This document shows, piece by piece, positions 41,085 through 59,310 of a DNA stretch of 64,000 nucleotides (positions within the stretch are counted from its first letter, which is position 1; every line of letters begins with the position of its first letter). This stretch comes from Patescibacteria group bacterium. GTDB taxonomy: Bacteria; Patescibacteriota; JACPGU01. The notes under the pieces were generated by a model, which was not told the origin of the DNA, made no database searches, and saw nothing but the letters and a program-made list of their open reading frames with translations. Where the stretch lies: contig JAKLDG010000001.1 in the NCBI GenBank assembly GCA_022703645.1, positions 338,814-402,813 of the forward strand, given 5' to 3'. The translations under genes and the position numbers were made by a program.

Positions 41085-42788
41085 ATGACTCAAGCTGATG
41101 CTCTCAAAATTTTGAAATCCGGAGCTAATGTTTTTATTACCGGAGAACCGGGATCTGGGAAGACTTACACGATTAACCAATATGTGGCATATCTGCGTTC
41201 TCACGGAATTGAACCGGCGATCACTGCTTCAACCGGAATTGCTGCTACGCATATTGGTGGGATGACAATTCATTCCTGGTCTGGTATTGGAATCAAAAAT
41301 CATCTAAGCAAATCGGATTTTCATAACATTATCACGAACGATTATATCGAGAAAAGAGTGGGGGAGGCCAAAGTCTTGATTATTGATGAGATATCCATGC
41401 TCCCTCCCGAAACTTTACAAATGGTAGACGCGATTTGTCGTGGGGTTAAGAAAAACCAAGCTCCATTTGGCGGTATGCAGGTGGTTCTGGTAGGAGATTT
41501 TTTTCAGCTTCCGCCTATCAAAAAAAATGAGTTTAGTGGATATTTACAGGATAACCTTTTTGACGAAGGAGCGCCCGCGCGCTTTGCATATGATTCACGC
41601 ACCTGGCGCGATATGGAATTTATCGCTTGCTATATTGATGAGCAGTACCGTCAGGATGATTTTGAACTTGTTAATCTTTTATCGAAAATCCGTTCCAATT
41701 CTTTTGGAGTTAATGAGTTAGCTCTTATTCAAAGACGACGGGTAGATGCGGTAAAGGCTCCTGATCATGCGCCAAAACTATTTTCGCATAATATCGATGT
41801 GGACACTGTTAATAATCAGATGTTAGAAAAAATTCGCGAGCCAAAACAGAGCTTTCCCATGATTACAAAAGGTCATGAAGCGCTGGTTGCCATAATGAAA
41901 AAAGGTTGTTTATCACCGGAAAATCTGGAATTAAAAATCGGCGCTGCCGTCATGTTTACCAGAAATAATCCGAAAGACGGATATGTAAATGGAACTTTGG
42001 GAGTAGTTGATTCATTCAACCATGATAATGGAATGCCGATTGTAAAATTGAGAAACGGACGTAAAATCGAAGTTTCTTACGCGGATTGGACGGTTGAGGA
42101 AGATGGTAAAGTGAAAGGACGCCTCACACAGATTCCTCTAAGGTTAGCTTGGGCGATAACGGTGCATAAAAGCCAGGGGATTTCGCTCGATGAAGCGGTT
42201 ATTGATCTTTCGAGCGTATTTGAATTCGGCCAAGGGTATGTGGCATTATCACGTGTGCGCAGATTACGCGGAATCTACATTCTAGGATGGAATGATAAAT
42301 CCTTTCAAGTTGACCCTGAAGTACTGAAAAAAGATCAAGAGTTTCGACGCGACTCAAAAGAAGCCGAAGCTTTTTTCTCGCGTTTTTCCGAGCAAGAGTT
42401 AGTAAAAACACAGAATGATTTCATTATATTTTGTGGCGGTGCAATAAATACCGAAGACGTCATTCCAAAGAAAAAAGGTAAAAAAACGCATACGATTAAC
42501 GAAACATTGAAGCTTTGGAAGGAAGGGAAGGGGATTACCCAAATTGCCGAAATCCGCGCCTTGAGTGAAAATACTGTTTTTTCACATATTGAAAGATTGG
42601 TTGAGAAAGGAAAAGTGGAACGCAAGGAACTAATGCGTCTTGCAAGCACAGACCTGAAACGCGCGCTGCCAAAAATTGAAAAGGCTTTTAAAGATTTAAA
42701 AACTAGAAAGCTAACTCCGGTTTTTGAGTATTTTAAGGGCAGACATTCTTATGACGATTTGAGATTAGCACGAATGATAAATAGTTAA
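41085..42788 (+). CDS. Pif1/RecD-family ATP-dependent DNA helicase with a C-terminal HTH domain
   Basis: Walker A GEPGSGKT, DEISML, VVLVGDFFQLPPI, HKSQG. Confidence 0.8.
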   Translation: MTQADALKILKSGANVFITGEPGSGKTYTINQYVAYLRSHGIEPAITASTGIAATHIGGMTIHSWSGIGIKNHLSKSDFHNIITNDYIEKRVGEAKVLIIDEISMLPPETLQMVDAICRGVKKNQAPFGGMQVVLVGDFFQLPPIKKNEFSGYLQDNLFDEGAPARFAYDSRTWRDMEFIACYIDEQYRQDDFELVNLLSKIRSNSFGVNELALIQRRRVDAVKAPDHAPKLFSHNIDVDTVNNQMLEKIREPKQSFPMITKGHEALVAIMKKGCLSPENLELKIGAAVMFTRNNPKDGYVNGTLGVVDSFNHDNGMPIVKLRNGRKIEVSYADWTVEEDGKVKGRLTQIPLRLAWAITVHKSQGISLDEAVIDLSSVFEFGQGYVALSRVRRLRGIYILGWNDKSFQVDPEVLKKDQEFRRDSKEAEAFFSRFSEQELVKTQNDFIIFCGGAINTEDVIPKKKGKKTHTINETLKLWKEGKGITQIAEIRALSENTVFSHIERLVEKGKVERKELMRLASTDLKRALPKIEKAFKDLKTRKLTPVFEYFKGRHSYDDLRLARMINS

Positions 42789-42919: not shown

Positions 42920-45001
42920 ATGATAATAAAAAAGAAAGTAAAAAATGAATTTTTCTTCGGATTTATTTCTGTTGCTGTTCTTGTTCTTTTTTTGGGAATG
43001 CTTTCCATGTTTGCCGCCAGTAATGTCGATACCACGGTTAATATAATTTCAGCTGCTCCGGCAATTACTTTTTTTACTGCGACGCCAACATCTGTGAATT
43101 CGGGGGATTCATCGCTATTAACATGGAATTCTACTAATACAACATCTTGCAATAGTAGTGATTTTGCAACAGGCGGCGCGATTAGCAACTTGATCGGTGT
43201 TCCAACTGGCGCGTTAACCACTGCAACTACCTTTACTATTACTTGTTCTGGTCCTGGAGGTCCTGACGCAACTAGTAGCGTTACGGTAACAATCTCCGCG
43301 GGTGGCGGACCATCTTATACTTCTACCCCCCCAACTCCAACTGTTCCAAAAATTACTTCTTTTATTGCGACGCCAGCTCTAGTTGATTCTGGCGGATCAT
43401 CCGTGCTTTCGTGGACTTCGCAGGATGCCACTTCTTGTAGCAGTCCTGATTTTTCAGTTGGATCAAGCTCAAATACAAACGGTTCTATTACATTAAATAA
43501 TATTACTTCAAATAAAATATTTAATCTAATTTGCACTGACGGAATCAGCTCAGACATGGCTAGCGTGGAGGTAAAGATTAATGTGGTTCCAATATTAATC
43601 GCAAATAAGACTTTGGTTGCCCCAGGTGATAGCATTTCTTTGAGCTGGACTGCGGCCGGGGCTGCAGTATGTACCGCTTCGGGAGTTGCTGGTTGGTCCG
43701 GTAGCAAATTTGTTCCAAGCGGAGCGCAAGATGTGGTTTTACCAAGTTCCCCGGGTATTTATGTTTATACACTAACTTGCGATGAAAGTTCAACTTTTGT
43801 AACGATAAACGTTGGATTGCCGCCGGTTTTTATCAGTTTTAATTCAAATAAAACTACTACTGCTCCCAGTGATACCGCATCACTCGCTTGGGATGTAACC
43901 GGAGCTGACACCTGCGAGGCTTCCGGAGCATCTGATTGGAGCGGAAACAAATCTTTATCTGGTACAAGTAGTATAACTTTACCAGACACTATTGGGTTTT
44001 TCTCATATAAATTAAGCTGTTCAAATGTATTTGGCTCTATCAGCCGTACGATCAATATCAATGTTTCAACTGCTGAAAAACCTCCAATTGAAGAACAACC
44101 TCCAATGCCAATTACTAACCCAATAGAAGTTACTAAACCAACTGAAGAAACATTTGGCGGCGCAGGCGGCGGTATTGAAGTAACGATGACAACCGAAAAT
44201 CCTCAGATAGAAATTGGGGCATTGGGAACAACCAAAATATCCTGGACTTCCAAAGGAGCTGATAGCTGCAGCGCTTCGGGTGTTGACGGCTGGGCAGGAA
44301 ACAAGCCAGTTAATGGAAGTGAAACTGTTACAGTTCCGGCTGAAACCGGAATCTATACTTATGTATTGACTTGTGAAAATCAAAAAGGACAAAAAACAGT
44401 TGCTTATGCTAAGATTACCGTAACCGAACCAAATAAAATTGAGGGTTTTTTCAACATCATAGAATCAGAAATCATTCCGGAAGCAGCGGTAACGTCTGGT
44501 GAAGTTTTGCAATATGTTCCAACCCCATCTGAAATAATAGACAAGCTAGGCCTGACGGAAGCTTTTTTGATTTCTGGTCCGCCAAAAACATTTGCGCAGA
44601 ATGTTTTATCCACTATCATTGCCGCTTTGTTGTTGTTGATGGTCCTTTACTTATCGATTTTATACTATAAAAATTCCAAAAACTGGGGTTATATCTTTGA
44701 TGCAGATTCAGGTCGCGCCATATCGGACGCAAAAATTGAAATCCGCAAAGCGTCCAATGGCGAGATACTCCAAACGACTTTATCCGACCATAAAGGAAAG
44801 TTCAGATTTATTTTAAAGAATCTTAAAGATGGGGATTATATTGTTGCGGTTGAAAAAAGAGGGTATCTTTTTCCATCCAAAGTTTTTGGAAGAAAGACTA
44901 CAATACCAAAATTAGTCTATCTCGGAAGAAAAACTAAATTGATTATTAAAAAAGGATTTAAGATGAAAATTCCTATCGACCCAATATCAAAACAAATATG
45001 A
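42920..45001 (+). CDS. surface protein with five tandem Cys-pair Ig-like repeats, a TM anchor and a carboxypeptidase-regulatory-like domain
   Basis: Signal/anchor; five modules of about 90 aa, each with two conserved Cys and W; C-terminal TM; DADSGRAISDAKIE ... KGKFRF ... DYIV CarbopepD_reg-like domain. Confidence 0.6.
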   Translation: MIIKKKVKNEFFFGFISVAVLVLFLGMLSMFAASNVDTTVNIISAAPAITFFTATPTSVNSGDSSLLTWNSTNTTSCNSSDFATGGAISNLIGVPTGALTTATTFTITCSGPGGPDATSSVTVTISAGGGPSYTSTPPTPTVPKITSFIATPALVDSGGSSVLSWTSQDATSCSSPDFSVGSSSNTNGSITLNNITSNKIFNLICTDGISSDMASVEVKINVVPILIANKTLVAPGDSISLSWTAAGAAVCTASGVAGWSGSKFVPSGAQDVVLPSSPGIYVYTLTCDESSTFVTINVGLPPVFISFNSNKTTTAPSDTASLAWDVTGADTCEASGASDWSGNKSLSGTSSITLPDTIGFFSYKLSCSNVFGSISRTININVSTAEKPPIEEQPPMPITNPIEVTKPTEETFGGAGGGIEVTMTTENPQIEIGALGTTKISWTSKGADSCSASGVDGWAGNKPVNGSETVTVPAETGIYTYVLTCENQKGQKTVAYAKITVTEPNKIEGFFNIIESEIIPEAAVTSGEVLQYVPTPSEIIDKLGLTEAFLISGPPKTFAQNVLSTIIAALLLLMVLYLSILYYKNSKNWGYIFDADSGRAISDAKIEIRKASNGEILQTTLSDHKGKFRFILKNLKDGDYIVAVEKRGYLFPSKVFGRKTTIPKLVYLGRKTKLIIKKGFKMKIPIDPISKQI

Positions 45002-46476
45002 AAAAAACAACGTTTAAAAAAATAGCCTACTTATTTTTGTCCACATTGATTTTTTGCGCTCTGATGACGCCTTTTAGCAGCTATGCGGCTGATTTGGCCA
45101 AAAAAAGCGGCAACAATTTTGGTATTACAAGAATTTCTATCGCGGATACTGATTATCCTTTAACTATTTCTATTTCTTCGGATAAAAATATAGTATTTAA
45201 TAATGGTTTAGACATAGCAAATTTAAAAGTTAGAATCGCAAATAGTAAAAAACAAGGCATTTCTGGAATTAATATTAAATTCAGTTCAGGCGGTAGGGAT
45301 ATAATTAATCCACCGGAAAATACCACAGACAATAATGGCATTGCATATTTCAAAGTCAGTTCTACCCAAGAGCATATCTCCAATTTTCAATTTAGCCTTA
45401 GAGACCCTACCAGCGGTGAGATTTATTCAAGTAATGTGGTAGCAATAAAGTTTTTGAGCCAAAGCCGCTTTAGTATGACCGTTAACTCTATCGCGGATTT
45501 CAAAAATAATACCGCCACAAAAGAGGCTGCTGCTTATGTTGTCGCTCCTGCGGCTACAGCTGTAATCGCCGTAAGCGCCTTTTCTCCAATTATTAATTTA
45601 TTAAGTTCTATTTTCCCATATTTGAATTACCTATTTAACGTAATATTACAGTTTTTTGGTATCAGAAGAAAACAAAAACCTTGGGGAATACTTTATGACA
45701 GCATGACAAAAGAGCCGATTGATCTTGGCACTGTCAGATTATTTGACGCAAAAACAAAAAATATCGTTCAAACCGCAACAACCGATAAGTCCGGAAGGTT
45801 TGGTTTTCCACCTTTATCAGGCAAATACTATTTAACAGCTGCTAAATACCAGTTTGGGTTTCCTTCAAAATTACTAAAAGGAGCGGTAGTTGACGGTAAA
45901 TATCACGGTTTATATTTCGGAGATAAGTTTAATTTAAAAAAGAATCAAAAACTTACTATTTCTGTACCAATTGACTTAGCAACCGCGGTAACTGCTCGGT
46001 TAAGATTGATAGACAGACTAAAAGCATTTTCAGAAAAGATATCGCGTCCTTTTTTGGTGGTAAGTCTGATGGTCACGTTGGTTATGCTTTGGATAAATAC
46101 AACCCTATATAATGAAATATTGATCATACTATATATATTGATGATTCTTACTATGAGGCGCATTCGCACATCAGCCATTATTCCATGGGGTATTATTTAT
46201 GATTCAAAGACTAAAAAACCGCTCAAGAGTATGCCGATTAAAGTATTTGATAAAAAATACAATAAATTGTTGGAAACGCGCGTCAGCGATGAAGCTGGCA
46301 GATTTACTTTCATATTACCGAAAGGGGAGTATTATTTCAAAATTGCTGATTTTCATTATCAGATAGATTTAAAAGCAAAAGAGTTAGGCGGCAATAAAAA
46401 CTATCATGGCGAGATTTTCAAGGTAGAAGAGAATGAGGTTTTAAGGTTTAATATTCCATTAAAAAGTTTAAAATAG
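44998..46476 (+). CDS. surface protein with a Big_1-like Ig domain and two carboxypeptidase-regulatory-like domains
   Basis: Signal peptide; invasin-like Big_1 segment; TM segments; two YDS.TK.P ... GRF.F repeats. 4-nt overlap (ATGA) with the upstream gene suggests translational coupling. Confidence 0.55.
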   Translation: MKKTTFKKIAYLFLSTLIFCALMTPFSSYAADLAKKSGNNFGITRISIADTDYPLTISISSDKNIVFNNGLDIANLKVRIANSKKQGISGINIKFSSGGRDIINPPENTTDNNGIAYFKVSSTQEHISNFQFSLRDPTSGEIYSSNVVAIKFLSQSRFSMTVNSIADFKNNTATKEAAAYVVAPAATAVIAVSAFSPIINLLSSIFPYLNYLFNVILQFFGIRRKQKPWGILYDSMTKEPIDLGTVRLFDAKTKNIVQTATTDKSGRFGFPPLSGKYYLTAAKYQFGFPSKLLKGAVVDGKYHGLYFGDKFNLKKNQKLTISVPIDLATAVTARLRLIDRLKAFSEKISRPFLVVSLMVTLVMLWINTTLYNEILIILYILMILTMRRIRTSAIIPWGIIYDSKTKKPLKSMPIKVFDKKYNKLLETRVSDEAGRFTFILPKGEYYFKIADFHYQIDLKAKELGGNKNYHGEIFKVEENEVLRFNIPLKSLK

Positions 46477-46500
46477 CATGAGCAATAAAAACAAAAAAAT

Positions 46501-49500
46501 ATGATTGTGGTAAAGAAAAAGAAAATACCTTTAAGACCGTTTTTAATCCTCTTAGTGTTAATAGCTGGGTTTACTTTGAGTTTGGGTTTAAAACCAAATG
46601 AAAAAATAAAAGCGGCTTATTCTAATCCTTGCAAGACAGCTGGCACGTATGCTGGTTATGTAGTTGACGCGAATCTTAATGTTATTATTCCGGCTTACAA
46701 TAATGCTGTGTTTGGTGACACTTTCTATGATAGTACCAGCAAAGAAATTCATTGTAAAAGCATAACGATAGAAACGGGAGCGACTTTAGATATATCGCCA
46801 AAAACTACCGGTGCAAGTAAAACAGGCGGCACAAATTATAGAAGATTGGTTCTTGATGGTGATTTGAATATCGCAAGCGGTGGAACGCTAAATCTATATG
46901 GCGGCAATATATATAATACCGGCGGACTCAATGGCACTGGGATAACAAATGATGGAAAAGGATATGGTATGAATGTTATGGTTGGTGGAAATGTTTTGGT
47001 TGAATCCGGCGGATGGATATCAGCTGATGGCAAAGGGTATGAACATAGTAAGGGGCCGGGAGCAGGTGTGGCTGAACCCGGTTCACAAGGCGCTGCATAT
47101 GGTGGGGCTGGTCCGGATGGAACCAATTGTTATGGGAAATATTACGGTTCGGTTTCTGACCCGATAGAACTCGGCAGCGGCAGTAGTTTGGGAGTAGGAG
47201 GCGGAGTAGTTGATATAACTGCCGCGGGAACAATATTAATTCGCGGCGTAGGCAAAATTACGGCAAACAGCATTGGAGAGGGATCGGGCGGTTCAGTAAG
47301 ACTCAGCGCCAATACTATTAGTAGTACAATTGACGGCGTAAATATACCTTCTATTACAGCAAATGGCGGTAGTGGGTCTTATTACAGTGGCGGCGGCAGA
47401 ATCGCGCTTTTTTATAATTCATCAAATTTTGGCGGTGATATCAAAGCTATTGCTAACGCCTATGGAGGAGCTGGCACTGTATTCAAGAAAAAAAATATCG
47501 AGGCTTATGGTGATTTAATTATTACAAATAATTATCAGGATCATACCGATAACCCTCCGGACTATACTCCATATGCATATACAAAAATTGGCAAAACAAA
47601 AATCGATTCTGGCACATATAAGAATATCACAGTTAATAAAAGAGCAAACGCTATTATTGAATCTAGTAATATAGTAAACATCAATGGTGGTACTTTTGAA
47701 GTAAATAATTCCAAACTTGAAAATAAAGGCACTTTAGCTTCACAGACTTCCGCAGAAAAATTTCTGGCGAAAAATACCGCTCGGATACTTAATAGCGGTA
47801 CAGGGTTATTTAGCCTGTCCGCGAACTCAAACGCTATATTTGACGGCATAGACACTTATTTTGAGAACCAAAATAATATTATCCAAAATTTCGCCAATTT
47901 AACTATCTCTAACGGGGCTGTCATGAGCCATGCCGTCAATGATGCTACCGGTGTGACAAATTGTCTTAGGAATTCAATTGATAATCCAGTTGGCGGCGCG
48001 ATCCCTCCTTGCGAATATAAGGATTGGGGTGATGGCTATGGGAAACATTGGAATCAAAAATATACCTTAAGGATAAATGCCACAAGTGTTAATATTGATA
48101 ACAAAAGTTCGATAGATGTTTCACAAAAGGGATTTCAAACATTACCTGGAACATCAGGTTTTGGGCCGGGAGGGTCAAGTACGGCTTACTCAATCGGTGG
48201 TTACGCGGGAGGTTCTTATGGTGGCAGAGGTGGTAACGATAATACTGGGGGAGTAAGCGCAGATATTTATGGCGACTCGGATGGAGACCTGAATAATCCA
48301 AATGATCTGGGAAGCAGCGGTGATACCGGCTATACTGCCGGAGGATTAGTAAGAATAACAGTTTTGGGCGATATTGTTAATAATGGCTCTATATTATCAA
48401 ATTCAGGTACGGTTTCAAATGGTTTTGCCGGTGGGTCAGGAGGAGGCATAAGATTGGATGCAGACCGGATTCTCGGAGCTGGAAAAATTTCTGCCAACGG
48501 CATGCCCGGAACGATAGATCTTGCGAAAGGCGGCGGAGGAGGCGGAAGGATCGCGATCACATACAAAACCACAAAAGATTTTTATGGTCCAATTACCGCT
48601 TATGGAGGGTCTACTGATGGGGGACCCGGTACGATACTTTTTGCAAACAATAGCTCGGGAGCCTTAATTGATAAAGAACTTGTTATTTCTAATTCAGTTT
48701 TAAACGACAATCCAACCAAAATAGGAGGCGGTACGTATAAAAATATTACCGTAAAGAATACCTCGCCAACTCTTACTGACCTGACTTTAGCCGCAATCGT
48801 TTCTGGACAATCCGTTGTCATGCAAGATGGTGGGAATTTTGAAGTTAACCAAACTAATTTAACTAATAGCGGAACTATTTCTTTATTAGCCGGAACGTCA
48901 AATTTAGTTATAAAGGGAAAATCAAATTTTATTAATATCGGACCTACCGCCTCTCCTGGCATTAACGCGAATAGTACTTCTAAAGTTATTTTGGACAATG
49001 CCAATTTTGAAAATAAGAATAATATTGAACAGAATTTTGGCAATCTTTATATCCAGAATGGAGCAATATTAACGCATACTCAAAATGATTACTTAACGGT
49101 AAATTGCGTGAATACTTCCTGTACCAACCAAGACCTGGGTGATGGCAATGGAATGCATTACAATCAGGCTTATACATTAAGAATACATGCAAACAATGCT
49201 TTAATTGATAAATTTAGCGCTATTAATGTTGATGGCAAGGGCTATGACATGGGTAGAGGACCGGGTAATAATGGGTCTGCTAATTCTGCCGGAAGTTATG
49301 GCGGAGCTGCGTCAAGCGGCGACAGTACCTATGGTTTAGCGGATAACCCTAATGATTTGGGCAGTGGAGGTTATTCCGGTAGTTATGGTGATAATACCGG
49401 CGGCGGTTTAGTAAGAGTTAGGGCAGACGGTAATATAACAGTTGATGGCTTTATTTCTTCGGATACAACATCTGCCGGATCTTTTGACGGCGCTTCAGGA

Positions 49501-52500
49501 GGCGGTATAAAATTAATAGCAAATAGTATTCTTGGCTCCGGTTCTATTTCCGCTAGTTCTAATTTGACAAGCGGGAATATTGGCGGAGGTGGCAGAATAT
49601 CTCTCATAGCTACGCAAAAAAATTACAGCGGCACCGTCTCTGTGAATAGAGGTGGAACTGGAGCGAATTACGGTACTATTTATGATTCTCTGGCTATCCC
49701 TACGACTTATGGTCCGAGCGCAACACCATTAACTTATAATACAAAATTAAGTAATAATACTCCATATATAAAAGCCGATAGTTCAGCAACAACGATAGGT
49801 GTTGATGAAGGCAATGCAGTTAGCACTGGATATACTCCAGATTCTGATACCTCACTTCTTTTGAAAATGGATAACTGGGGAGATGGTCTTATTTATGATT
49901 CTTCCGCAAAATCAATACCTGTTATTAAATATGGCACAACTTCCTTCTCTGATACTGTTTTGAAAACTGGAACGCATTCACTATTATTTAATGGTTCCAC
50001 AGGTCGTTTAATACCTGATGGTACTTTTACATCAAATTTCCAGTATGGCACCGGAGCTTTTACTATTGATACTTGGATTTATCCAAAATCTGTTACGACA
50101 CTTCAAACAATTTATTCTCAAAAAAATAGCGCGACACCAACAACTAATGCATCATCATTACAAATTACTACTACCGGTCAGCTAAAATATACTGAAAATG
50201 GAGTTTCTATTATTTCTCCTGTCAGTACTATAAAACTAGGCAGTGATGTCGGATGGCAACATGTTGCTTTAGTTAGAGATAATTTAGGGGTTGAAAGATT
50301 ATTTTATAATGGTTCCGTAGTAGGAACACAGTCGTCTACATACTCCAAATTCAGCGATGTCGGTATCGGATGTTTATACCAGTCTACTAATACATTATTT
50401 TATAATGGCTATATGGATGAGTTCCGTATCAGTAAAGGAGTGGCGCGCTGGACCTCTGATTTTATTCCATTATCTGATGATGGCAACTGGGAAAAATTAA
50501 ATTTGAGAGCAACAAGGACTAACCCTAGCTCCGATACTAAGCTTTTGCTTCATCTCGATGGAACAAATGGATCAACTACCTATACTGACAGTTCTCCTTC
50601 AAACCATACAATATTGCGTTACAACACACCAACAATTTCCACTAACACTAGTAAATTTGGCGGCGCGTCAGGCGCTTTCCCGAGAGTAACCTCTCCATAC
50701 TTTGATTATATTTATGCTAATGATAATGTTAATGATTGGACTTTTGGCGCGGGTGATTTTACGATAGATTTTTGGGCTAACTTTTCAGATAATGTCAGGC
50801 AAGGTGTTCTTGCCATCGGCTCCGGCGCTTATGCTCCAATTGCTTTTGAAGTAGTAAGCAACAATCTTAACGTCTACATGACTAGTAATGGTAGCAGTTG
50901 GGATATCGCTAGCGGTCAACCAGTTGGCCAAACATTTGGTCCGGTAACACCAGGCGTTTGGGTACATTATGCGCTAACAAGGAATGGAAATACTTTTTAT
51001 CTTTTTGTTAATGGTACTACTGTAAACTCTTTTATGTCATCATTAAGTTTATGGAATAATAGCGGCGCTTTATATATAGGGCAATATTTTGGGTCTGTTA
51101 CAGCCTTTAAGGGCTATCTGGATGAATTTAGAATTATAAAGGGAAGAGCGGCTTGGAGTAATAATTTTACTCCTTCTACAACTCCCTATGAAATTTATGA
51201 TGACCCGTCTTTCAATGGAACGGTAGATATTGGCATAATAGATAATCTTGCAGGTGAATATGTTTTTTCCGGCTGCAACGGAGCGAACTGTACTTTTTCA
51301 GATTCAAAAGTTACAGCGAGATTCATAAATGGTATTGCTAATTTAGCAGTAAAAGTAAAAGACAAAAGAGATGGGCAGATAAAGCATCACGGTTTTTCAG
51401 GGCTAAAAATTAACTCCGTTTCAAATGTATCTTATATAAATAATAATCAAATAACCGGAGCTATCGAAATTCAAGATAGAACCCCAGAAAGATCAATACC
51501 ATCAGGTCCTGCCCCCGCAGGAAGTATTACTAAAGGAACTGCTGGCGCTACTATTTTTCCAATGGGAGCCGGTTTTAGTATTATAAATAATTCCAAAGGA
51601 ACCAGTCAGAGCCAACAAGATTTGGGTGGTAATTTAGTGGTTCGAGGTCCATTAGCATCCGCGCCATATCGTCTTTACCTTGATAAAAACATAATGTATA
51701 AAAGAGGTGATTATTTGAATAGCGACGGAACTATTAGCAGCGTGGCAACAGATTATCAAGTGGTTTGTGTTAATACAGCGGACTATACCCAAACAAAAAT
51801 AAGATGTAATGATGATCTGAGCACCAGCGCTATTCCATCAGGATTGCGAAATTATGGTATATATACATTTAATAAAACTTATAATTTCTATACCCAGAAC
51901 GAAACCTCTAATTATTCAGCGCCTTCAATATCTCAAGTTCTTATACCAGCTAGCAACCCAACTGTGCCTGTTATTTCTCCTTTAACAATAACTCCGACTA
52001 ACGGAAAATTAAATCTCAGCTGGAATAATCCAATTGATAATATCGGGCAAACAAAAACTTTGATCGTTAGAGGTATCGATAGTATTCCTACTTTCGTTCC
52101 AAGTGATGGGACGGATTATAATACCTGGTCAAATACTACTGTAACCGGAGAAGAGATGATCTATGACAGCACTAATGTCGGGGCGGGAAGTGAAGTAAAA
52201 AACTTTGACGATGCCAATGTATTTTTTGGAACCAGATACTGCTATACAATCTATGCTCAATATATTGGTTATATTTATTCGGTAGGGACTTCTGCTTGCA
52301 GCACTCTAACATCAATTATTGATCCGCCAGTCAACCCAACTATCACGATTCAAGGAATGATGATAAATATCGGATGGACAGCGCCACCTTCCGGCAATCC
52401 TGATAATTACCTGATTGTTAGAAAAAAAGGCACAACAGAACCAAACTGGAATCCAACCGGGGAAACTGCTGACTATAATATTGGTGATACGGTTGGCGAT

Positions 52501-55500
52501 GGTGTTGTTGTCTGTAAAGGATTTTCATGCACTGATCAAAATGTAAATGTAAATACTTTGCCAACCCAGTATTATTATAAAATTTATGCTCAGTATGGAA
52601 CCGCGGCTCCCTTCAGTTATTCTGTCGGTTCAACGGCAGTAAGCGGAAATCCTAACCCGGAAAACCCCCAAAAGTTTGATAATACCAATGAAGCAACACC
52701 AAGTGTAACACTGGACAATCTATCAGGACCTTACACGCCTCTTAATACATTTAAGATTGCAAATTATCTTGTCTGGAAAGCAACAACTCCGGCTGATTGC
52801 TCAGGGGCTTGGACGCCAACCAATGGAGCTGACTATTCAGGAGTGCAAGGAACTGGAAATATCATTTACAAAAACCCAGCAGCGCCAATATCATATATTG
52901 ATACTGCAGTTACAAATGGCGTTGGTTATTGTTACAAAATCTTTGTCCAATATAATGGTGAAACAATCAATACTACTGATCTAATGTATTCTTCTGGATT
53001 AAGTCTTTGGACTCAACCGCCAAATCATAATCCAACAATTAGCGTAAATAGCATCACCCAAACGATCGGCACGGATAATGTGGTAATTAACTTTAATGTA
53101 AATGATATTGATCCATCTGATAATGGCAAGCTTTCTGTTGGCTTTGCTGTTACAAATCCGGTTTCAGGATGCAGTATTAGCACTTTAACCGGACCAATAA
53201 CTAACCTCGGTGTCGGAGCTCATAGCGTTACTTGGACCGCCACTACCACTAATGGAACCGCGGGGGATTGTCCAGGCGTAGAAATGTTAGCCGGTTCTGC
53301 TCAACTGACAGCCACTGTTTCCGATTTTATCGGAGCCACCGGTACCGCTAGTCCAACTTTCTCTCTTGACACCAAAGCTCCCATTGCAAGTTCCAGCCTT
53401 ATTTTGTCCTCCAAAAACAGCAACTCCATTACTGTCGCTACCGGAGCTACCGGGGCTACTGATGGAAACATAAAAACTACCGCTGCCTATAAAGTCTATT
53501 ACAAGCAAGGATCAACGGTAGACGAAGTAAGCGGTACGCAAATACTACCAAATATTAATAGTTATGTTGCGGGACAGATATTTACTGCTTCCTCGCTAAT
53601 AACTAACCAGCAATATTCATTTAATATCTGGGCTTATGATAACTATGGACATAAAACTGCTGCTACGGTATTAAATGTCAGCACAAAAGGAAAATCTGTT
53701 ACAGGATTTACAGCTATAGTTCAAGGTATGAGAGTCCATCTGAGTTGGGACGCAATGCTGCCGGCGCCAGATAAGCATCTGGTTATTCGTAAGAAAGGAA
53801 CATCCGCGTCTACTTGGACGCCAACAGATGGTATTGGAATATATGCTGCTGGCAACACGGTAGATGCAGATACGATAGTAGTTTACCATGGCACAGGCGT
53901 CACTCTGGATGATGATGCAGTTGATGGAGCAGCCTATACCTATACTATCTTTGCCAACTATTCTGGAAATCTATATTCAGAGGGGGTTTCAGCTCCATCG
54001 ATAACACCGAATGCTCTGAACGCGTCGTTATCTGCTCCTGCCTATATACCAAATGGATCAAATTATGATATCGCACTCAACTGGGTAGCCCCCACACCAA
54101 GTTACAGTTTACAAAAATATGTAGTAGTTAGAGAAGTTGGGTCTCCTACTTGTTTAATCGAATGGACGCCAACCAAGGATAATAACTATAATGCATTAGA
54201 TCCAACCGGCTTTACTAATGAAGAAATTATCTATTCCGGAACCGGAACCACTACTACTGATAATATGGGAGGAACGGGAGTTTCTTCTGGTACAAATGTT
54301 TGCTATAAGATCTTTACTCAATATCTGGGAGATGATTTAGCGGTTCCAACAAACTTAGTTTATTCCGCTGGAATTGCCGCTACCTATGTACCGCCAAATC
54401 TGCCTCCAGAGATAGAGATTGGTTCAGTCACAGCGCTACAAACTACCGGAACTGAAAATATTGTTATAGCTTACCGTGTTAGAGATTCCGACTCAACCAA
54501 TTTGAATATTACATTTAGCATGATTGATCCGGGAGGCTCCACTTGCCAAATGAATTTAACTGATAATTTGGCGGGGATTGATGGCACTTACTATACTCAT
54601 ACCGCTACTTGGAATGCAGGGCTGGCAGGAGAGTGCCCGGGATTTGAAGTAACAAATGCTGTTATCCAAGTAACTGCCAGCGATAGTCTTAATTCTGTTT
54701 CGCAAAACTCCGCTCCATTTCTGCTTGATACTCTATCCCCAAGGCTTCCAACTCCAACTGTTTCTAACTTTAATTTAACTAATTTTTCATCAACAGGAGA
54801 TAAGATATTCTTCAATCTAGGATCTAATTCAACAACTGATACTAATGCGCTTAACTACAAGATATACTATGCTTCTGGGGGAAGTGTTGATGAAACAGGA
54901 ATACTCATAACAGGAGCTCCTATAGCATTTACTCCTGGAGCTGCATATTCGGTAACCGGATTAACACCGGGACAAAACTATACATTTAATATTTGGGCTT
55001 ATGATAAATATGGGCATAAAACTTCTGCGACTTCCGTAACATATTCAACTATTGTGCCTGCTCCGGCAAGCTTCTCTGTAACTCCGCATGGAATGAGATT
55101 ATCACTTACTTGGACGGCTCCTGTCGGTGGAACCCCAGACTATTATCTGATAGTTAGAAAAGCTAATTCAGATCCAATAATAGCTCCCGCTAATGGTTCT
55201 ACATACAACCTGGGGGATATTTTGAGCGGGGGAATGGTAGTCTACAATTCAACCGGGACAAGCCTTGACGATGATAATATTGATGACGGTCCTTACTATT
55301 ACCGAATTTATGCGCATTATTCAAATGGCAATTTCTCACCAGCCTTGGCTGGCAATGCGATTGCAGTGGCGGAAGGACCAAATACATTCAGCGCAACCTC
55401 AAGCCCAGCGCCAGTAGTCACATACATAGACACTCCACCAACAAATAATTTCAGTTTCGAGAACTATCTTATTTGGAAGAAAGAACAACCTAGCTGTACT

Positions 55501-57534
55501 ACTGATGGCAATCTGGTAGACGGTACGGTATATAATTATCTTGATTCAGTAGATGGGGGAACGATTATTTATAAATCAAACATTGATCCTAATGGTATGT
55601 CTGATATCTCAACTACAATAACTGGCCATACTTACTGCTACAAGATGTTCGTAGAGTATAATGGAGAAACTACTAATACTATCTATTCTAATGAAATGTA
55701 CTTTCAAATCACTCCTCCAAATAATCCTCCGACTCTTTCCGCTCTTTCTGTTGTTCAAACAATAGGTAGTGACGATGTTGTAATCGGATTTACTATTAAT
55801 GATCCGGATGGAATTGACGCTGGCAATCTCTCAGTCGCTTTATCAATTGTTAACCCTCCAGAAGGATGCAGTATCGGTACAATATCTGGTTCTTTGACTG
55901 GTTTATCAAATGGTAGTTATTCGGTTACTTGGACTGATGCCGATACTACTTGCCCTGGGCTTGAATTATCTAATGCTGGTTTAGAGTTTATTGCTCACGA
56001 CCTGATAGATTATTCATCTGCGCAGATAAGCAGTTTTTTACTCGACACTAAAGCGCCTACACTAATAGAGGGGCTAACATATGACCCACCAACCGCAGAT
56101 ACTATTGTAGTACGCCTAAGCACCAATACATTCTTCTTAAATCCTTTGAGTGTTGATCAAAATCTAAAAGGAGGAGGAAATAGCTTTAAGATTTACTACA
56201 AACAAGACAGTACCGTTTCAGAATCCGATACACAATTAGCTGCCTTTGATAATTATATCTTAGGGCAAGACTATACGGCCACACCATTAGGATCTAATTC
56301 ACAATATTCATTTAATATCTGGGCTTATGATAACTATGGACATAAGACAGCATATACTGATCCAGTCAAGCCAACTACCAGCGGTCTCAACGGACCACCA
56401 GTAGTACAATATGTTGCTCAACCAGTCCAAGCTGCTGGTACTGGTAATATCAATTTCAGTTTTGAAGTAAAAGATCCAGACTCGGATGGTTTAACTATCA
56501 CATTCTCACTAATTAATAATCCAGTCGGTTGCAGTATCTCTGGCGTTACTGGGTTTACCAATCCTGTATCCTCCACCAGTACTTTTGCAACAATTATCTC
56601 CAGCTGGAATGCGAAATTAACTTGTGATGGAGCGGATCAGTCTGACCTCAAGATCAGAATTAGCGCGGATGATGGAAACGGACATACAGCAACTATTGAT
56701 TCAGATCCATTTACTATCGATACGAAAAATCCTGTCTCTCCAGGAAACCTATCATTCCCAGCAGGAACTACTTTTGCGAATCAGGTTAGTGTAAAGACAA
56801 ATACTATTTCCGGTAGCGATACTAATGCCGATGATTGGCATGTATATAGGGTTGATGGAAATACTTTCCCAACGGATCCATTCTCTCCTGCTCTAACTCC
56901 AATTAAATTATATGATCCTTATATACCAGATGACGTATTTATTGATTCGGGGTTAACGCCAGATTCTGATTATACTTATAATATCTGCCTGCATGATACT
57001 TTTATGAACTTTACCTGCGCAACATCGCAAACTATTCATACACCAGCTTCAATATTAAGCTTTAATATTCTTGGTATTGCCAGTGGAATATCGGTTGGAG
57101 TTGAAACAACTAATATCACTACTACTTCTACAACAATTCCTTTTGGCAGTACTACAGTAGGGGATACAAAGGTTGGAGCGCTTGATCTACAAGGCACAAC
57201 AAATCTGGTTAATGGATATACTATTGATATCAGACAAGACCAAGATTTAACATCAGGAGGCAACACTATTCCTGCCCTTACCTCTACTAACGCTAGTCCG
57301 CAAGTATGGCCACCAACTCCAATTAGTTCTTTCTTTGGATATTCATCAATCAATCTTTCCAGATTTTCAAATGGCGTTAATTGGGCAGGATTAACTTTGT
57401 CTGACCTACCGATAGTAACACAGATAAACGGGACTCATGATGATGATGTTTTATTCAAATTATCCACCAAGAGTCCTCAACCAGCAGGAACTTATCAAAA
57501 CACCATTACTTTCTCAATAATGGCGAATCCGTAG
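46501..57534 (+). CDS. giant surface/adhesin-like protein (3677 aa): signal-anchor, Gly-rich beta-helix-like repeats, two LamG (Laminin_G_3) domains, tandem Ig/FN3-like modules
   Basis: Single uninterrupted ORF. N-terminal TM; duplicated ~400-aa Gly-rich module; LamG motifs (LLLHLDGTNGSTTYTDSS ... DFTIDFWANF; AFTIDTWIYP); four ~120-aa modules plus three FN3-like modules ending ...NIWAYD.YGHKT. Confidence 0.7.
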   Translation: MIVVKKKKIPLRPFLILLVLIAGFTLSLGLKPNEKIKAAYSNPCKTAGTYAGYVVDANLNVIIPAYNNAVFGDTFYDSTSKEIHCKSITIETGATLDISPKTTGASKTGGTNYRRLVLDGDLNIASGGTLNLYGGNIYNTGGLNGTGITNDGKGYGMNVMVGGNVLVESGGWISADGKGYEHSKGPGAGVAEPGSQGAAYGGAGPDGTNCYGKYYGSVSDPIELGSGSSLGVGGGVVDITAAGTILIRGVGKITANSIGEGSGGSVRLSANTISSTIDGVNIPSITANGGSGSYYSGGGRIALFYNSSNFGGDIKAIANAYGGAGTVFKKKNIEAYGDLIITNNYQDHTDNPPDYTPYAYTKIGKTKIDSGTYKNITVNKRANAIIESSNIVNINGGTFEVNNSKLENKGTLASQTSAEKFLAKNTARILNSGTGLFSLSANSNAIFDGIDTYFENQNNIIQNFANLTISNGAVMSHAVNDATGVTNCLRNSIDNPVGGAIPPCEYKDWGDGYGKHWNQKYTLRINATSVNIDNKSSIDVSQKGFQTLPGTSGFGPGGSSTAYSIGGYAGGSYGGRGGNDNTGGVSADIYGDSDGDLNNPNDLGSSGDTGYTAGGLVRITVLGDIVNNGSILSNSGTVSNGFAGGSGGGIRLDADRILGAGKISANGMPGTIDLAKGGGGGGRIAITYKTTKDFYGPITAYGGSTDGGPGTILFANNSSGALIDKELVISNSVLNDNPTKIGGGTYKNITVKNTSPTLTDLTLAAIVSGQSVVMQDGGNFEVNQTNLTNSGTISLLAGTSNLVIKGKSNFINIGPTASPGINANSTSKVILDNANFENKNNIEQNFGNLYIQNGAILTHTQNDYLTVNCVNTSCTNQDLGDGNGMHYNQAYTLRIHANNALIDKFSAINVDGKGYDMGRGPGNNGSANSAGSYGGAASSGDSTYGLADNPNDLGSGGYSGSYGDNTGGGLVRVRADGNITVDGFISSDTTSAGSFDGASGGGIKLIANSILGSGSISASSNLTSGNIGGGGRISLIATQKNYSGTVSVNRGGTGANYGTIYDSLAIPTTYGPSATPLTYNTKLSNNTPYIKADSSATTIGVDEGNAVSTGYTPDSDTSLLLKMDNWGDGLIYDSSAKSIPVIKYGTTSFSDTVLKTGTHSLLFNGSTGRLIPDGTFTSNFQYGTGAFTIDTWIYPKSVTTLQTIYSQKNSATPTTNASSLQITTTGQLKYTENGVSIISPVSTIKLGSDVGWQHVALVRDNLGVERLFYNGSVVGTQSSTYSKFSDVGIGCLYQSTNTLFYNGYMDEFRISKGVARWTSDFIPLSDDGNWEKLNLRATRTNPSSDTKLLLHLDGTNGSTTYTDSSPSNHTILRYNTPTISTNTSKFGGASGAFPRVTSPYFDYIYANDNVNDWTFGAGDFTIDFWANFSDNVRQGVLAIGSGAYAPIAFEVVSNNLNVYMTSNGSSWDIASGQPVGQTFGPVTPGVWVHYALTRNGNTFYLFVNGTTVNSFMSSLSLWNNSGALYIGQYFGSVTAFKGYLDEFRIIKGRAAWSNNFTPSTTPYEIYDDPSFNGTVDIGIIDNLAGEYVFSGCNGANCTFSDSKVTARFINGIANLAVKVKDKRDGQIKHHGFSGLKINSVSNVSYINNNQITGAIEIQDRTPERSIPSGPAPAGSITKGTAGATIFPMGAGFSIINNSKGTSQSQQDLGGNLVVRGPLASAPYRLYLDKNIMYKRGDYLNSDGTISSVATDYQVVCVNTADYTQTKIRCNDDLSTSAIPSGLRNYGIYTFNKTYNFYTQNETSNYSAPSISQVLIPASNPTVPVISPLTITPTNGKLNLSWNNPIDNIGQTKTLIVRGIDSIPTFVPSDGTDYNTWSNTTVTGEEMIYDSTNVGAGSEVKNFDDANVFFGTRYCYTIYAQYIGYIYSVGTSACSTLTSIIDPPVNPTITIQGMMINIGWTAPPSGNPDNYLIVRKKGTTEPNWNPTGETADYNIGDTVGDGVVVCKGFSCTDQNVNVNTLPTQYYYKIYAQYGTAAPFSYSVGSTAVSGNPNPENPQKFDNTNEATPSVTLDNLSGPYTPLNTFKIANYLVWKATTPADCSGAWTPTNGADYSGVQGTGNIIYKNPAAPISYIDTAVTNGVGYCYKIFVQYNGETINTTDLMYSSGLSLWTQPPNHNPTISVNSITQTIGTDNVVINFNVNDIDPSDNGKLSVGFAVTNPVSGCSISTLTGPITNLGVGAHSVTWTATTTNGTAGDCPGVEMLAGSAQLTATVSDFIGATGTASPTFSLDTKAPIASSSLILSSKNSNSITVATGATGATDGNIKTTAAYKVYYKQGSTVDEVSGTQILPNINSYVAGQIFTASSLITNQQYSFNIWAYDNYGHKTAATVLNVSTKGKSVTGFTAIVQGMRVHLSWDAMLPAPDKHLVIRKKGTSASTWTPTDGIGIYAAGNTVDADTIVVYHGTGVTLDDDAVDGAAYTYTIFANYSGNLYSEGVSAPSITPNALNASLSAPAYIPNGSNYDIALNWVAPTPSYSLQKYVVVREVGSPTCLIEWTPTKDNNYNALDPTGFTNEEIIYSGTGTTTTDNMGGTGVSSGTNVCYKIFTQYLGDDLAVPTNLVYSAGIAATYVPPNLPPEIEIGSVTALQTTGTENIVIAYRVRDSDSTNLNITFSMIDPGGSTCQMNLTDNLAGIDGTYYTHTATWNAGLAGECPGFEVTNAVIQVTASDSLNSVSQNSAPFLLDTLSPRLPTPTVSNFNLTNFSSTGDKIFFNLGSNSTTDTNALNYKIYYASGGSVDETGILITGAPIAFTPGAAYSVTGLTPGQNYTFNIWAYDKYGHKTSATSVTYSTIVPAPASFSVTPHGMRLSLTWTAPVGGTPDYYLIVRKANSDPIIAPANGSTYNLGDILSGGMVVYNSTGTSLDDDNIDDGPYYYRIYAHYSNGNFSPALAGNAIAVAEGPNTFSATSSPAPVVTYIDTPPTNNFSFENYLIWKKEQPSCTTDGNLVDGTVYNYLDSVDGGTIIYKSNIDPNGMSDISTTITGHTYCYKMFVEYNGETTNTIYSNEMYFQITPPNNPPTLSALSVVQTIGSDDVVIGFTINDPDGIDAGNLSVALSIVNPPEGCSIGTISGSLTGLSNGSYSVTWTDADTTCPGLELSNAGLEFIAHDLIDYSSAQISSFLLDTKAPTLIEGLTYDPPTADTIVVRLSTNTFFLNPLSVDQNLKGGGNSFKIYYKQDSTVSESDTQLAAFDNYILGQDYTATPLGSNSQYSFNIWAYDNYGHKTAYTDPVKPTTSGLNGPPVVQYVAQPVQAAGTGNINFSFEVKDPDSDGLTITFSLINNPVGCSISGVTGFTNPVSSTSTFATIISSWNAKLTCDGADQSDLKIRISADDGNGHTATIDSDPFTIDTKNPVSPGNLSFPAGTTFANQVSVKTNTISGSDTNADDWHVYRVDGNTFPTDPFSPALTPIKLYDPYIPDDVFIDSGLTPDSDYTYNICLHDTFMNFTCATSQTIHTPASILSFNILGIASGISVGVETTNITTTSTTIPFGSTTVGDTKVGALDLQGTTNLVNGYTIDIRQDQDLTSGGNTIPALTSTNASPQVWPPTPISSFFGYSSINLSRFSNGVNWAGLTLSDLPIVTQINGTHDDDVLFKLSTKSPQPAGTYQNTITFSIMANP

Positions 57535-57575
57535 AAACAATTAATCAAGAAAACAAAAAAAACAACAAATCAAAT

Positions 57576-58289
57576 ATGCTAAAAAAAATATCTACAACCC
57601 TTCTCATTACTGCTTCCATATTAATATTCTCCAACCAAGCCTTGGCGCAAGAAACTACTAACACTATCAGCTCTTCTGTTTCTCCAGCGTTAATTAGTCT
57701 CAAATTAGATAAAGGAGAAACTAAAAGCTCTTCTTATGAGTATGTCAATGGTACTGATGATAATCTTATAATTACTATTAGCACTAGAGCCTTTGCTCCT
57801 AGTAATGGGGAACATGGAACCCCGCTATTTATAGACAAAGATGGAAAAAAGGTTACTTCACCCTTAACCAGTTGGATTAAATTAAATGAGAGTAGTATGA
57901 GTGTTAAGAAAGGGGAGAAAGCAACTGTAAACTTTCAGATTAATGTTCCTTCTGATGCAAAAGAAGGCAAATACTTTGCAGCTATATTTAATACAGAAAC
58001 TGATGGGGGGTCAGATAGCGGTTCATTAGTAAAGAAAGAGTTGGGAGTTACTCTGGTTGTTGAAGTTCTCGCCCCCAAACCAATACCAGGCACTACTACA
58101 ACCACATGGCAGAAAGACAATCTTCTTTCCTATATTATTTTTGGTGCTGCGTTATTGGCATTACTATTATTAATTGCTGCGATATTTAAGAGGAAAAAGA
58201 AAACTCCAAAATTCTTCCCGGAAGAGGAAAGGAAAGAGTTAGTAAAGAAAGTAAAACGAAAAGTAAAAATCACCAAAAATAAAAAATAG
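57576..58289 (+). CDS. secreted protein with a C-terminal TM anchor and basic tail
   Basis: Signal peptide, beta-rich body, C-terminal hydrophobic helix plus KRKKKTPKFF. Confidence 0.5.
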   Translation: MLKKISTTLLITASILIFSNQALAQETTNTISSSVSPALISLKLDKGETKSSSYEYVNGTDDNLIITISTRAFAPSNGEHGTPLFIDKDGKKVTSPLTSWIKLNESSMSVKKGEKATVNFQINVPSDAKEGKYFAAIFNTETDGGSDSGSLVKKELGVTLVVEVLAPKPIPGTTTTTWQKDNLLSYIIFGAALLALLLLIAAIFKRKKKTPKFFPEEERKELVKKVKRKVKITKNKK

Positions 58290-58321: not shown

Positions 58322-59179
58322 ATGAGCAATCAAGACGATGTCCGCATAAATATTTTAGGAATTCCTATCGATCGGGTAGGTTATATTGATGTTTTAGATA
58401 AGATTGAATACTATATAAAAAAAGGCGGGTATCACTATATCGCAACGGTTAATCCAGAGTTTATTATGCACGCGGCGCAAGATAGCGAGTTTAAAAAAGC
58501 ACTACAAAATTCGAACTTAAATACAGCTGATGGCGTCGGAATCGTATGGGCAAGTAAATATCTTGCGAAAACTCAAAAATCAAATCTCAAATCTCAAAAT
58601 TTAAGCATCACTTCGCGATTTATTTATAAAATCAAAAAGATATTCTGGTTGAAAATTTCTTTGTTCTCAATTTTATTTAACCGTCGTTGGCTCTATTCTG
58701 AAATTCCGGAGCGTGTTACCGGAGCAGACCTGATCTGGAAAATAGCAAAAAAAGCGCAAGATGAAGGCTGGAAAATTTTCCTACTTGGAGCAGGGGAGGG
58801 AGTCGCGGGAAACGTTGCGGGAAAATTGAAATCAAAATTCCCGAAAATTAATATTGTCGGTACTTATTCAGGCCGCCCGGAAGAAGAGGGGATTGCTGAT
58901 AGAGTTGCCGGATATGAACCGGATATTTTGTTTGTTGCTTTTGGCTCTCCTCGACAGGAAAAATTCATTTATAACAATTTGGATAAGCTCAATGCAAAAG
59001 TTGTTATTGGAGTCGGTGGAACATTTGATTTTATTGCTGGGCTAGCAAGAAGAGCGCCAAGATTTATGAGGAGATTCGGAATTGAATGGTTATGGAGACT
59101 TGTCTGCCAACCATTTCGAATCGGCAGAATTATCAACGCTTTTCCAAAATTTGTCTGGAAAGTTTGGAGGGGTAAATAA
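58322..59179 (+). CDS. WecB/TagA/CpsF-family glycosyltransferase with an AT-rich in-frame insertion
   Basis: ILGIPID, ATVNPEF, ADGVGIVWASKY, ILFVAFGSPRQEKF, GVGGTFDF, GIEWLWRL. An insert of about 45 aa (KTQKSNLKSQNLSITSRFIYKIKKIFWL...) lies between conserved blocks. Confidence 0.85.
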   Translation: MSNQDDVRINILGIPIDRVGYIDVLDKIEYYIKKGGYHYIATVNPEFIMHAAQDSEFKKALQNSNLNTADGVGIVWASKYLAKTQKSNLKSQNLSITSRFIYKIKKIFWLKISLFSILFNRRWLYSEIPERVTGADLIWKIAKKAQDEGWKIFLLGAGEGVAGNVAGKLKSKFPKINIVGTYSGRPEEEGIADRVAGYEPDILFVAFGSPRQEKFIYNNLDKLNAKVVIGVGGTFDFIAGLARRAPRFMRRFGIEWLWRLVCQPFRIGRIINAFPKFVWKVWRGK

Positions 59180-59310
59180 TTTGACAAGTAAATTTGGATG
59201 TTGTAAAATAGAAATATAATAGAGTAGAAATACTCTGTTTTTTTGTTTTTAAAATTAATACGAAGAAAAAATCTATACCAATAATTAATATACTATAATA
59301 GGATTTTTTC

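Follow-up and report, generated by a model that had tools for sequence, protein, structure and literature searches.

A giant LamG protein gene beside a WxLIP-like gene in a Patescibacteria surface-protein locus

Introduction

In the WxL clusters of Gram-positive bacteria, small WxL proteins and large WxL proteins, the latter with N-terminal beta-helix or immunoglobulin (Ig) adhesin domains, are encoded together with a WxL-interacting protein (WxLIP) that is anchored by a transmembrane (TM) helix (PMC9772566, PMC10599100). The WxLIP has the layout DUF916-DUF3324-TM, and AlphaFold2 (AF2) predicts that one of its strands completes the WxL sandwich (PMC9772566, PMC10599100). Operationally, a WxL cluster has been defined by at least one WxLIP and at least two WxL proteins within four genes (PMC10599100), and more than 91% of the known WxL proteins are found in Firmicutes (PMC9772566, PMC10599100). 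Giant LamG/ConA-like surface proteins of the candidate phyla radiation (CPR) have been discussed as attachment factors (bioRxiv 10.1101/2025.02.25.640227). The present work concerns four genes, g1 to g4, at positions 42920-58289 of a 64,000-nucleotide (nt) stretch, the window, on contig JAKLDG010000001.1 of a Patescibacteria group bacterium (assembly GCA_022703645.1). The third gene encodes a giant LamG protein with a conserved C-terminal domain (CTD), and the fourth encodes a membrane protein that by profile comparison is homologous to the WxLIP.

The CPR, or Patescibacteria, account for a large part of bacterial diversity, and their way of life is attachment to other microbes. The source of the window is a metagenome-assembled genome (MAG) of this group, and g4 is 100% identical to a protein of a MAG classed as Patescibacteria group bacterium. 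This is in keeping with the original prediction, which was made from the sequence alone and linked a surface-protein locus of this type to episymbiotic, reduced-genome bacteria.

Results

Layout of the locus

The four genes are co-directional and closely packed, with gaps of 24 nt between g2 and g3 and 41 nt between g3 and g4. The genes and features of g3 and g4 are given below with positions in the window, strand and amino acids (aa).

42920-45001, + strand: g1, 693 aa
44998-46476, + strand: g2, 492 aa, overlapping g1 by ATGA
46501-57534, + strand: g3, 3,677 aa, secreted giant
57049-57531, + strand: CTD, g3 aa 3517-3677 (the last ~160 aa), a conserved beta-sandwich for which Pfam has no model
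57576-58289, + strand: g4, 237 aa
57699-57986, + strand: WxLIP-PGBD (DUF916)-like Ig-fold domain, g4 aa 42-137 (Pfam)
58131-58196, + strand: TM helix, g4 aa 186-207 (hydropathy)

Open reading frames (ORFs) with exactly these limits were found for all four genes, and hydrophobic signal or anchor segments were flagged by a hydropathy scan at the N-termini of g1, g2 and g3, which agrees with the predicted run of four consecutive genes for signal-peptide or TM-anchored proteins. The predicted 4-nt overlap of g1 and g2 was read in the sequence as ATGA, and suggests that the two genes may be translationally coupled. The identical 3,677-aa g3 protein is encoded on seven contigs, each of 0.2-1 Mb; neighbouring genes were displayed for one of these places, where they match, and the remaining six were grouped as similar places. 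Since the exact protein recurs on seven contigs, a single frameshift or assembly error does not account for the giant ORF, and the uninterrupted reading frame of the original prediction holds. A motif search found no LPXTG or LPXTG-like sorting motif in g1-g4. Profile searches of the remaining ~49 kb of the window returned no other CTD, no other g2-type gene and no other gene for a LIP, the term used here for g4 and its CPR relatives.

A large family of strictly C-terminal domains

The CTD carries the motif series ...TTN-ITTTSTTIPFG...NGYTIDI...TNASP...FGY...RF...WAG...PAGTYQNTITFSIMANP, and it recurs at the C-terminus of ~350-aa proteins from Parcubacteria, Dojkabacteria and Saccharimonadales. 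An exhaustive HMMER scan (E<=1e-3) recovered 2,928 representatives at 50% identity, and no Pfam match was found in the 22 members scanned. The end of the domain lies at most 5 residues from the protein C-terminus in 166 of the 168 proteins retrieved. Its carriers are either the ~350-aa proteins or giants of 1.7-3.3 thousand aa with one to four LamG domains, and the passenger domains of the giants differ among genomes (LamG, Kelch, DUF2341, Big_3). The CTD is a large, dedicated family that is strictly C-terminal. Its AF2 model is confident, with a predicted local distance difference test (pLDDT) score of ~90 across the domain, and the Foldseek matches of this model in the PDB were almost only donor-strand-complemented subunits, namely FimA, CfaB, CsuA/B, PapA, FimG and the TasA fibre.

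The membrane protein g4 as a WxLIP relative

From its N-terminus g4 runs through a Sec signal (ALA|QE), a single Ig-like domain, a linker rich in Thr, the TM helix and a cytoplasmic tail rich in Lys; the Sec signal was read by eye, at a place where the hydropathy scan gave no flag. The Ig-like domain matched WxLIP_PGBD at 25.1 bits (E=2e-5), below the gathering cutoff of 27.3. Three relatives of g4 gave scores of 26.1 (P0003), 24.7 (the 309-aa protein of locus L006) and 35.3 bits (the second LIP, LIP2, of locus L012), the last being a Saccharibacteria LIP that passes the cutoff (35.3 vs 27.3). In five independent CPR proteins the matches span profile positions ~17-121.

Family profiles were also compared with each other. 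Nine annotated WxL clusters were compared, from Listeria, Enterococcus, Bacillus, Lactococcus, Melissococcus and Lactiplantibacillus plasmids, and 59 CPR LIPs aligned with 9 Firmicute DUF916-DUF3324 proteins at a hhalign probability of 98.9% (E=1.5e-17) over 295 columns that include both domains. An earlier hhalign run had given 96.9%, and the negative controls gave P=0.2-0.6. The related CPR LIPs of 300-440 aa align over both PGBD and HBD. On this profile evidence g4 is to be regarded as a WxLIP homolog. The small anchored protein of the original prediction does have its C-terminal TM helix; it is not an incidental member of the locus, being a homolog of WxLIP/DUF916.

Conserved neighbourhood of CTD, LIP and g2-type genes

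Gene order was compared in 30 genome loci that were retrieved via the small-CTD family and originate from Saccharibacteria, WWE3, Dojkabacteria, Woesebacteria, other Patescibacteria and a few MAGs labelled otherwise. A LIP gene adjoins a CTD gene in all 30, on the same strand in 29, and 50 of the 64 CTD genes are followed by a LIP gene within 500 nt. The cassette giant or large CTD protein, LIP1, small CTD protein, LIP2 is present in 19-20 of the 30 loci; small CTD proteins occur in all 30. LIPs that follow giants and LIPs that follow small CTD proteins form distinct lineages, with 29% and 32% identity within and 23% between them, which fits cognate CTD-LIP pairs.

In the closest relative, locus L001, a g2-like gene is followed by the gene of a 1,326-aa LamG/Big_12 protein with the same CTD (...IFSIIANP) and then by a g4 homolog. 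The g3-like protein is a third of the size of g3 and the gene order is still kept, with an ortholog of the C-terminal module of g2 encoded directly upstream of the g3 homolog. Reciprocally, 44 metagenome loci were collected with the TM-CarboxypepD_reg module of g2 as query. A LIP lies upstream of the g2-like gene in 16 of them, directly adjacent in 14, and the triad small CTD protein, LIP, g2-like protein was found in 13; many of the remaining loci break off at the g2-like gene. CTD, LIP and g2-type genes are conserved neighbours.

Two further observations were made on these cassettes. In 12 of the 30 (L014:12949-14625 and loci L015-L017, L021-L024, L027, L030, L037 and L038) an extra TM-anchored surface protein is encoded ~1 kb beyond the second LIP gene, on its downstream side. 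Inspection by eye suggests a cohesin-like N-terminus and Ig-like domains, and the protein ends in a C-terminal TM helix with a charged tail; it is absent from the window. Six MAGs with a cassette of the CPR type (L017, L022, L024, L027, L031, L034) are labelled Gammaproteobacteria, Pseudomonadales, Clostridia or Acidimicrobiales, which could reflect mislabelling, bin contamination or genuine horizontal transfer.

Modules of the giant protein g3

Upstream of its CTD, g3 is divided as follows.

aa 1-40: Sec signal
46621-49800, + strand: Gly-rich region, aa 41-1100, 17% Gly, with three units ending GGGRI[AS]L (composition)
49813-50475, + strand: LamG 1, aa ~1105-1325 (Pfam, self-similarity)
50500-51180, + strand: LamG 2, aa ~1334-1560 (Pfam, self-similarity)
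aa 1561-1904: unassigned all-beta region between LamG 2 and the super-repeats
52213-56286, + strand: three copies of a ~455-aa super-repeat, aa 1905-3262 (self-similarity map, repeat alignment)
aa 3263-3516: partial fourth copy of the super-repeat

The two LamG domains of the original prediction were recovered by Pfam as two stretches matching Laminin_G_3 (PF13385) at 91.1 bits against a cutoff of 27.6, and self-BLAST identified the pair, aa 1105-1325 and 1334-1560, as an internal duplication. The units of the Gly-rich region follow the pattern ...DGKGY...GPG...YGG...DLGSG...GGGxxxL...GGGRI[AS]L, with Asn-rich stretches between them. GGGRI is found at aa 297, 680 and 1029, and the unit occurs three times, not twice. 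A beta-helix fold of this N-terminus is plausible; the beta-helix-like repeats proposed for it found no support from hidden Markov models (HMMs), as Pfam gave no match in aa 1-1100.

The count of about 12 Ig/FN3 modules in the original prediction has to be raised. The ~455-aa super-repeat is present in 3.5 copies with about five beta modules each, which we read as roughly at least 17 modules, so that 17 or more are probably present. The fn3 scores were marginal and came from partial matches (24.0 bits with all of g3, and 27.1 bits with a single segment, over 28 residues only). An AF2 model of the super-repeat unit, for which the multiple sequence alignment held the internal repeat copies only, was all-beta and of low confidence (pLDDT 56), and its Foldseek matches in the PDB were exclusively tandem FN3 arrays. 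The model and the scores hint at FN3-like modules, and to that extent the predicted FN3-like character is retained.

The membrane proteins g1 and g2

The following features were located in g1 and g2.

g1 aa 7-38: signal or anchor segment (hydropathy)
g1 Cys 77/109, 173/205, 251/287, 332/367 and 450/485: five Cys pairs of the ectodomain (Cys positions)
44588-44674, + strand: TM helix, g1 aa 557-585 (hydropathy)
44687-44866, + strand: CarboxypepD_reg/transthyretin-like domain, g1 aa 590-649 (Pfam)
g2 N-terminus: signal peptide (hydropathy)
45166-45414, + strand: Big_1, g2 aa 57-139 (Pfam, 38.5 bits vs cutoff 34.9)
g2 aa 177-225: hydrophobic region, then RRKQK (hydropathy)
45685-45852, + strand: CarboxypepD_reg 1, g2 aa 230-285 (Pfam, 43.2 bits vs cutoff 32.3)
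g2 aa 348-388: TM hairpin, then RRIRTS (hydropathy)
46198-46341, + strand: prealbumin/CarboxypepD_reg-like domain 2, g2 aa 401-448

The protein g1 holds exactly 10 Cys, which make up five evenly spaced pairs. The pairs agree with the original prediction of five Cys-pair Ig-like repeats; their Ig-like nature does not gain HMM support, the ectodomain having no match in Pfam. Its CarboxypepD_reg domain is borderline in Pfam (32.4 bits vs cutoff 32.3), and with a local HMM the TM and CarboxypepD_reg module was matched at E=8e-53. For g2 the predicted composition of Big_1 and two carboxypeptidase-regulatory-like domains is backed by the Pfam matches to Big_1 and CarboxypepD_reg and by the second, prealbumin-like domain (SpaA/prealbumin, 35.9 bits vs cutoff 23.1).

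The architecture of g2 recurs in proteins of 571 aa (L006/L011) and 859 aa (L032). In the latter, encoded at L032:9850-12426, ~35 consecutive prolines link the ectodomain modules. A TM-CarboxypepD_reg module of the g2 type also anchors giants of 2,100-3,000 aa (L053, L055, L061, L068, L076, L077, L088), and two such genes are sometimes found in tandem; these giants represent a second class of CPR giant surface proteins with its own anchor type.

Flanking genes

The locus is surrounded by ordinary chromosomal genes according to Pfam, with MscL and a Pif1-type helicase upstream and TagA, NusA and ClpC downstream. One of the neighbours downstream lies close to g4:

58322-59179, + strand: tagA, WecG/TagA-family glycosyltransferase (Pfam Glyco_tran_WecG, 186 bits), beginning 32 nt after g4

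No terminator was found between g4 and tagA, and the first strong promoter-like site (TTGACA-17-TAAAAT, 59181-59209) follows tagA, ahead of nusA. Accordingly, tagA may be co-transcribed with the surface-protein genes, as a candidate fifth member of the operon. The WecG/TagA family acts in the linkage of wall teichoic acid or cell-wall glycopolymers. A tagA neighbour is not conserved beside L001. The Pif1-like helicase directly upstream of the locus (41085-42788) has a C-terminal HTH_40 domain, with no apparent link to the surface genes.

Discussion

A proposed mode of surface display

On balance the locus is probably a CPR form of the WxL/Csc surface-display cluster known from Gram-positive bacteria, and the giant g3 would dock non-covalently on the membrane-anchored g4. 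The giant would be exported by Sec, and its Gly-rich region, two LamG domains and ~17 beta-sandwich modules would form a long stalk that projects outward. The stalk would bind a glycan or surface ligand, and if the bacterium is an episymbiont the most plausible place for that ligand is the host cell. That g3 is an adhesin or serves in host attachment is inferred from its adhesin-like build, with a Sec signal, two LamG lectin-type domains and long all-beta module arrays. The CTD would fold as a pilin-like beta-sandwich and dock non-covalently onto the ectodomain of g4, a type-I membrane protein whose homology is to the first domain (DUF916/PGBD) of the WxLIP. By analogy with the AF2-predicted WxLIP-WxL complex, such docking would probably occur through a strand of g4 that completes the CTD sandwich. 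The proteins g1 and g2, of a family that recurrently accompanies CTD-LIP pairs, would be accessory membrane proteins and probably part of a membrane platform, their putatively Ig-like ectodomains being joined to one or two modules of TM and transthyretin-like (CarboxypepD_reg) domains.

Several observations weigh against the interpretation as a WxL/Csc variant. As no small CTD protein is present and g4 lacks DUF3324, the locus falls outside the published definition of a WxL cluster: the cassette of the window is a reduced one, hmmsearch with the CTD profile found only g3 in the 64 kb, and in the hhalign alignment g4 stops at the start of the second domain (DUF3324/HBD). The CTD itself does not resemble WxL in sequence. 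No match to PF13731 (WxL) at E<=1 was obtained in g3 or the 22 CTD proteins, in a Pfam scan where genuine WxL proteins scored 184-196 bits and genuine WxL and WxLIP proteins together 136-196 bits. When 61 CTD sequences were aligned with 22 WxL sequences by hhalign, the probability was at most 4.6% with only the last strand aligned, and P=0.009-0.07 was no better than the negative control (P=0.016); the positive controls, small vs large CTD and small vs large WxL, gave E=1e-32 and E=2e-19. W-x-L motifs are absent from the CTD, where the analogous positions read GYTI and TFSI. Judged by these sequence comparisons the CTD is not a recognisable WxL domain. Its Foldseek matches to pilins have a probability of ~1.0, yet TM-scores of 0.3-0.5, an rmsd of 6-17 A and an identity of 8-16%. 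The CarboxypepD_reg domains of g1 and g2 would be cytoplasmic by the positive-inside rule alone, an unusual placement. Finally, LIP1 and small CTD are fused in one ORF in L017:9092-11053 (protein P0026, 642 aa), the only such fusion; here the LIP TM helix runs directly into the apparent signal peptide of the next protein, so the fusion looks like read-through rather than design.

Other explanations

The likeness of the CTD to pilins raises the question of a donor-strand-exchange fibre, in which small CTD proteins would be the shaft, the giant CTD protein the tip adhesin and the two-Ig-domain LIPs membrane-tethered chaperones or terminators, so that in the reduced variant of the window only the tip adhesin and the base (g4) remain. 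Among the top 50 PDB matches of the CTD model, nearly all are donor-strand-exchange subunits (type 1, P, CFA/I and Csu pilins and the TasA fibre). Canonical cassettes pair a LIP with each of their CTD proteins, which are a single giant and at least one small protein, and the WxLIP has been described with two Ig-like domains at right angles to each other and with a strand that completes the WxL sandwich. This arrangement is geometrically reminiscent of PapD-type chaperones. The low TM-scores of 0.3-0.5 speak against a fibre, as does the AF2 monomer of the CTD, which is confident and apparently complete without a donor strand. Nor is a free N-terminal extension that could serve as donor strand evident in g3, where the CTD is fused to upstream FN3-like modules; the small subunit is missing from the window, neither an usher nor an assembly ATPase is present in the loci, and polymerisation is not known for WxL proteins, which are the closest functional analogues. 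We regard the fibre as improbable. A wider proposal, which we consider unlikely, includes docking as well as fibres: CTD and LIP proteins would constitute an unrecognised monoderm donor-strand-complementation system widespread in Patescibacteria, with membrane-tethered LIPs of two Ig domains, distant relatives of the WxLIP, as anchored chaperones and CTD proteins that dock on these or form fibres with giant LamG adhesins at the tip. It would be the principal means by which CPR episymbionts display and exchange host-binding proteins, and would share an ancient origin with WxL clusters, the anchor domain having diverged beyond recognition.

The proteins could instead be envelope or S-layer-like structural proteins, or a glycan-harvesting complex whose LamG/ConA-like domains bind or process polysaccharide in the service of nutrition or wall organisation. 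The ConA-like lectin/glucanase superfamily includes Laminin_G_3, GH16 is weakly matched in one related giant, and the TagA/WecG wall-glycopolymer transferase is encoded 32 nt downstream; for the csc/WxL clusters of Lactobacillus a carbohydrate-utilisation role has been proposed (Siezen et al. 2006, PMC1534035). Pfam found no catalytic glycoside hydrolase domain above threshold in g1-g4, however, tagA is not kept beside L001, and the passenger domains of the CTD giants vary from LamG to Kelch, DUF2341 and Big_3 among genomes. Such variability is more typical of adhesins and variable surface proteins than of a conserved structural layer, and a structural or glycan-harvesting role has little probability in our estimate. 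That the four genes are independent neighbours, with a generic Ig-like fold behind the likeness of g4 to DUF916, might be argued from the sub-cutoff Pfam score of g4 itself (25.1 bits) and from the many surface proteins encoded in CPR genomes. Coincidence is most improbable, being largely excluded by synteny: CTD and LIP genes adjoin in every one of the 30 loci, which come from Saccharibacteria, WWE3, Dojkabacteria, Woesebacteria and others, the order g2-like, g3-like, g4-like is kept in L001, and the other ~49 kb of the window hold no match to CTD, LIP or g2-type genes. The LIP-WxLIP profile homology, moreover, extends over both domains (E=1.5e-17) with clean negative controls.

Implications and comparison with known systems

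If the locus is a WxL/Csc variant, it suggests how CPR hold giant, fast-evolving surface proteins on the cell, by a CTD paired gene by gene with a LIP. The biology of WxLIP/DUF916 would then extend well beyond Firmicutes, and the CTD would offer a sequence handle for cataloguing candidate host-binding proteins in CPR genomes. Some of the cassette-bearing Saccharibacteria are now genetically tractable (PMC10633639), which makes a role of the cassette in epibiotic attachment directly testable.

The likeness to WxL/Csc clusters lies in the gene for a TM-anchored DUF916-family protein adjoining that of a secreted multidomain protein with a strictly C-terminal anchoring domain, and in adhesin-like N-terminal passengers (lectin domains and, putatively, beta-helix-like and Ig/FN3 arrays). 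Related CPR loci have the full triad of large protein, small domain-only protein and two-domain LIP, and the LIP component is truly homologous by profile alignment (hhalign 98.9%, E=1.5e-17). The Firmicute clusters fetched have the order small WxL, DUF916/DUF3324, large WxL. In contrast to these, the C-terminal domain here lacks W-x-L motifs, has no PF13731 match and gives no significant match in hhalign; a small partner is missing from the window, and g4 is without DUF3324/HBD. Large WxL proteins typically have 500-1000 aa, and g3 is 4-7 times longer. The WxL clusters fetched or described contain nothing that corresponds to the TM-CarboxypepD_reg proteins g1 and g2, an LPXTG protein is absent here, and the host phylum is Patescibacteria.

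With chaperone-usher pilins and TasA the locus shares the best solved-structure matches of the CTD model (FimA, CfaB, CsuA/B, PapA, TasA) and an Ig-like partner that in the WxL system is the predicted strand donor. It differs from chaperone-usher systems in having no periplasm and, by Pfam, no usher or PapD-family chaperone in g1-g4 or the flanks. This likeness is a structural analogy only.

The known giant ConA-like proteins of CPR are likewise large and secreted, carry lectin domains and belong to episymbiotic reduced-genome bacteria, with attachment to host cells as their speculated role. In the searchable literature no work pairing DUF916 or WxL with CPR was found, a Saccharibacteria study (Cell 2023) does not mention DUF916, and the CPR literature searched gave no description of the CTD, its WxLIP-type partner or the conserved cassette. 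New in comparison with all of these systems are a WxLIP-based display module outside Firmicutes, a very large unannotated family of CTDs and an extra membrane component.

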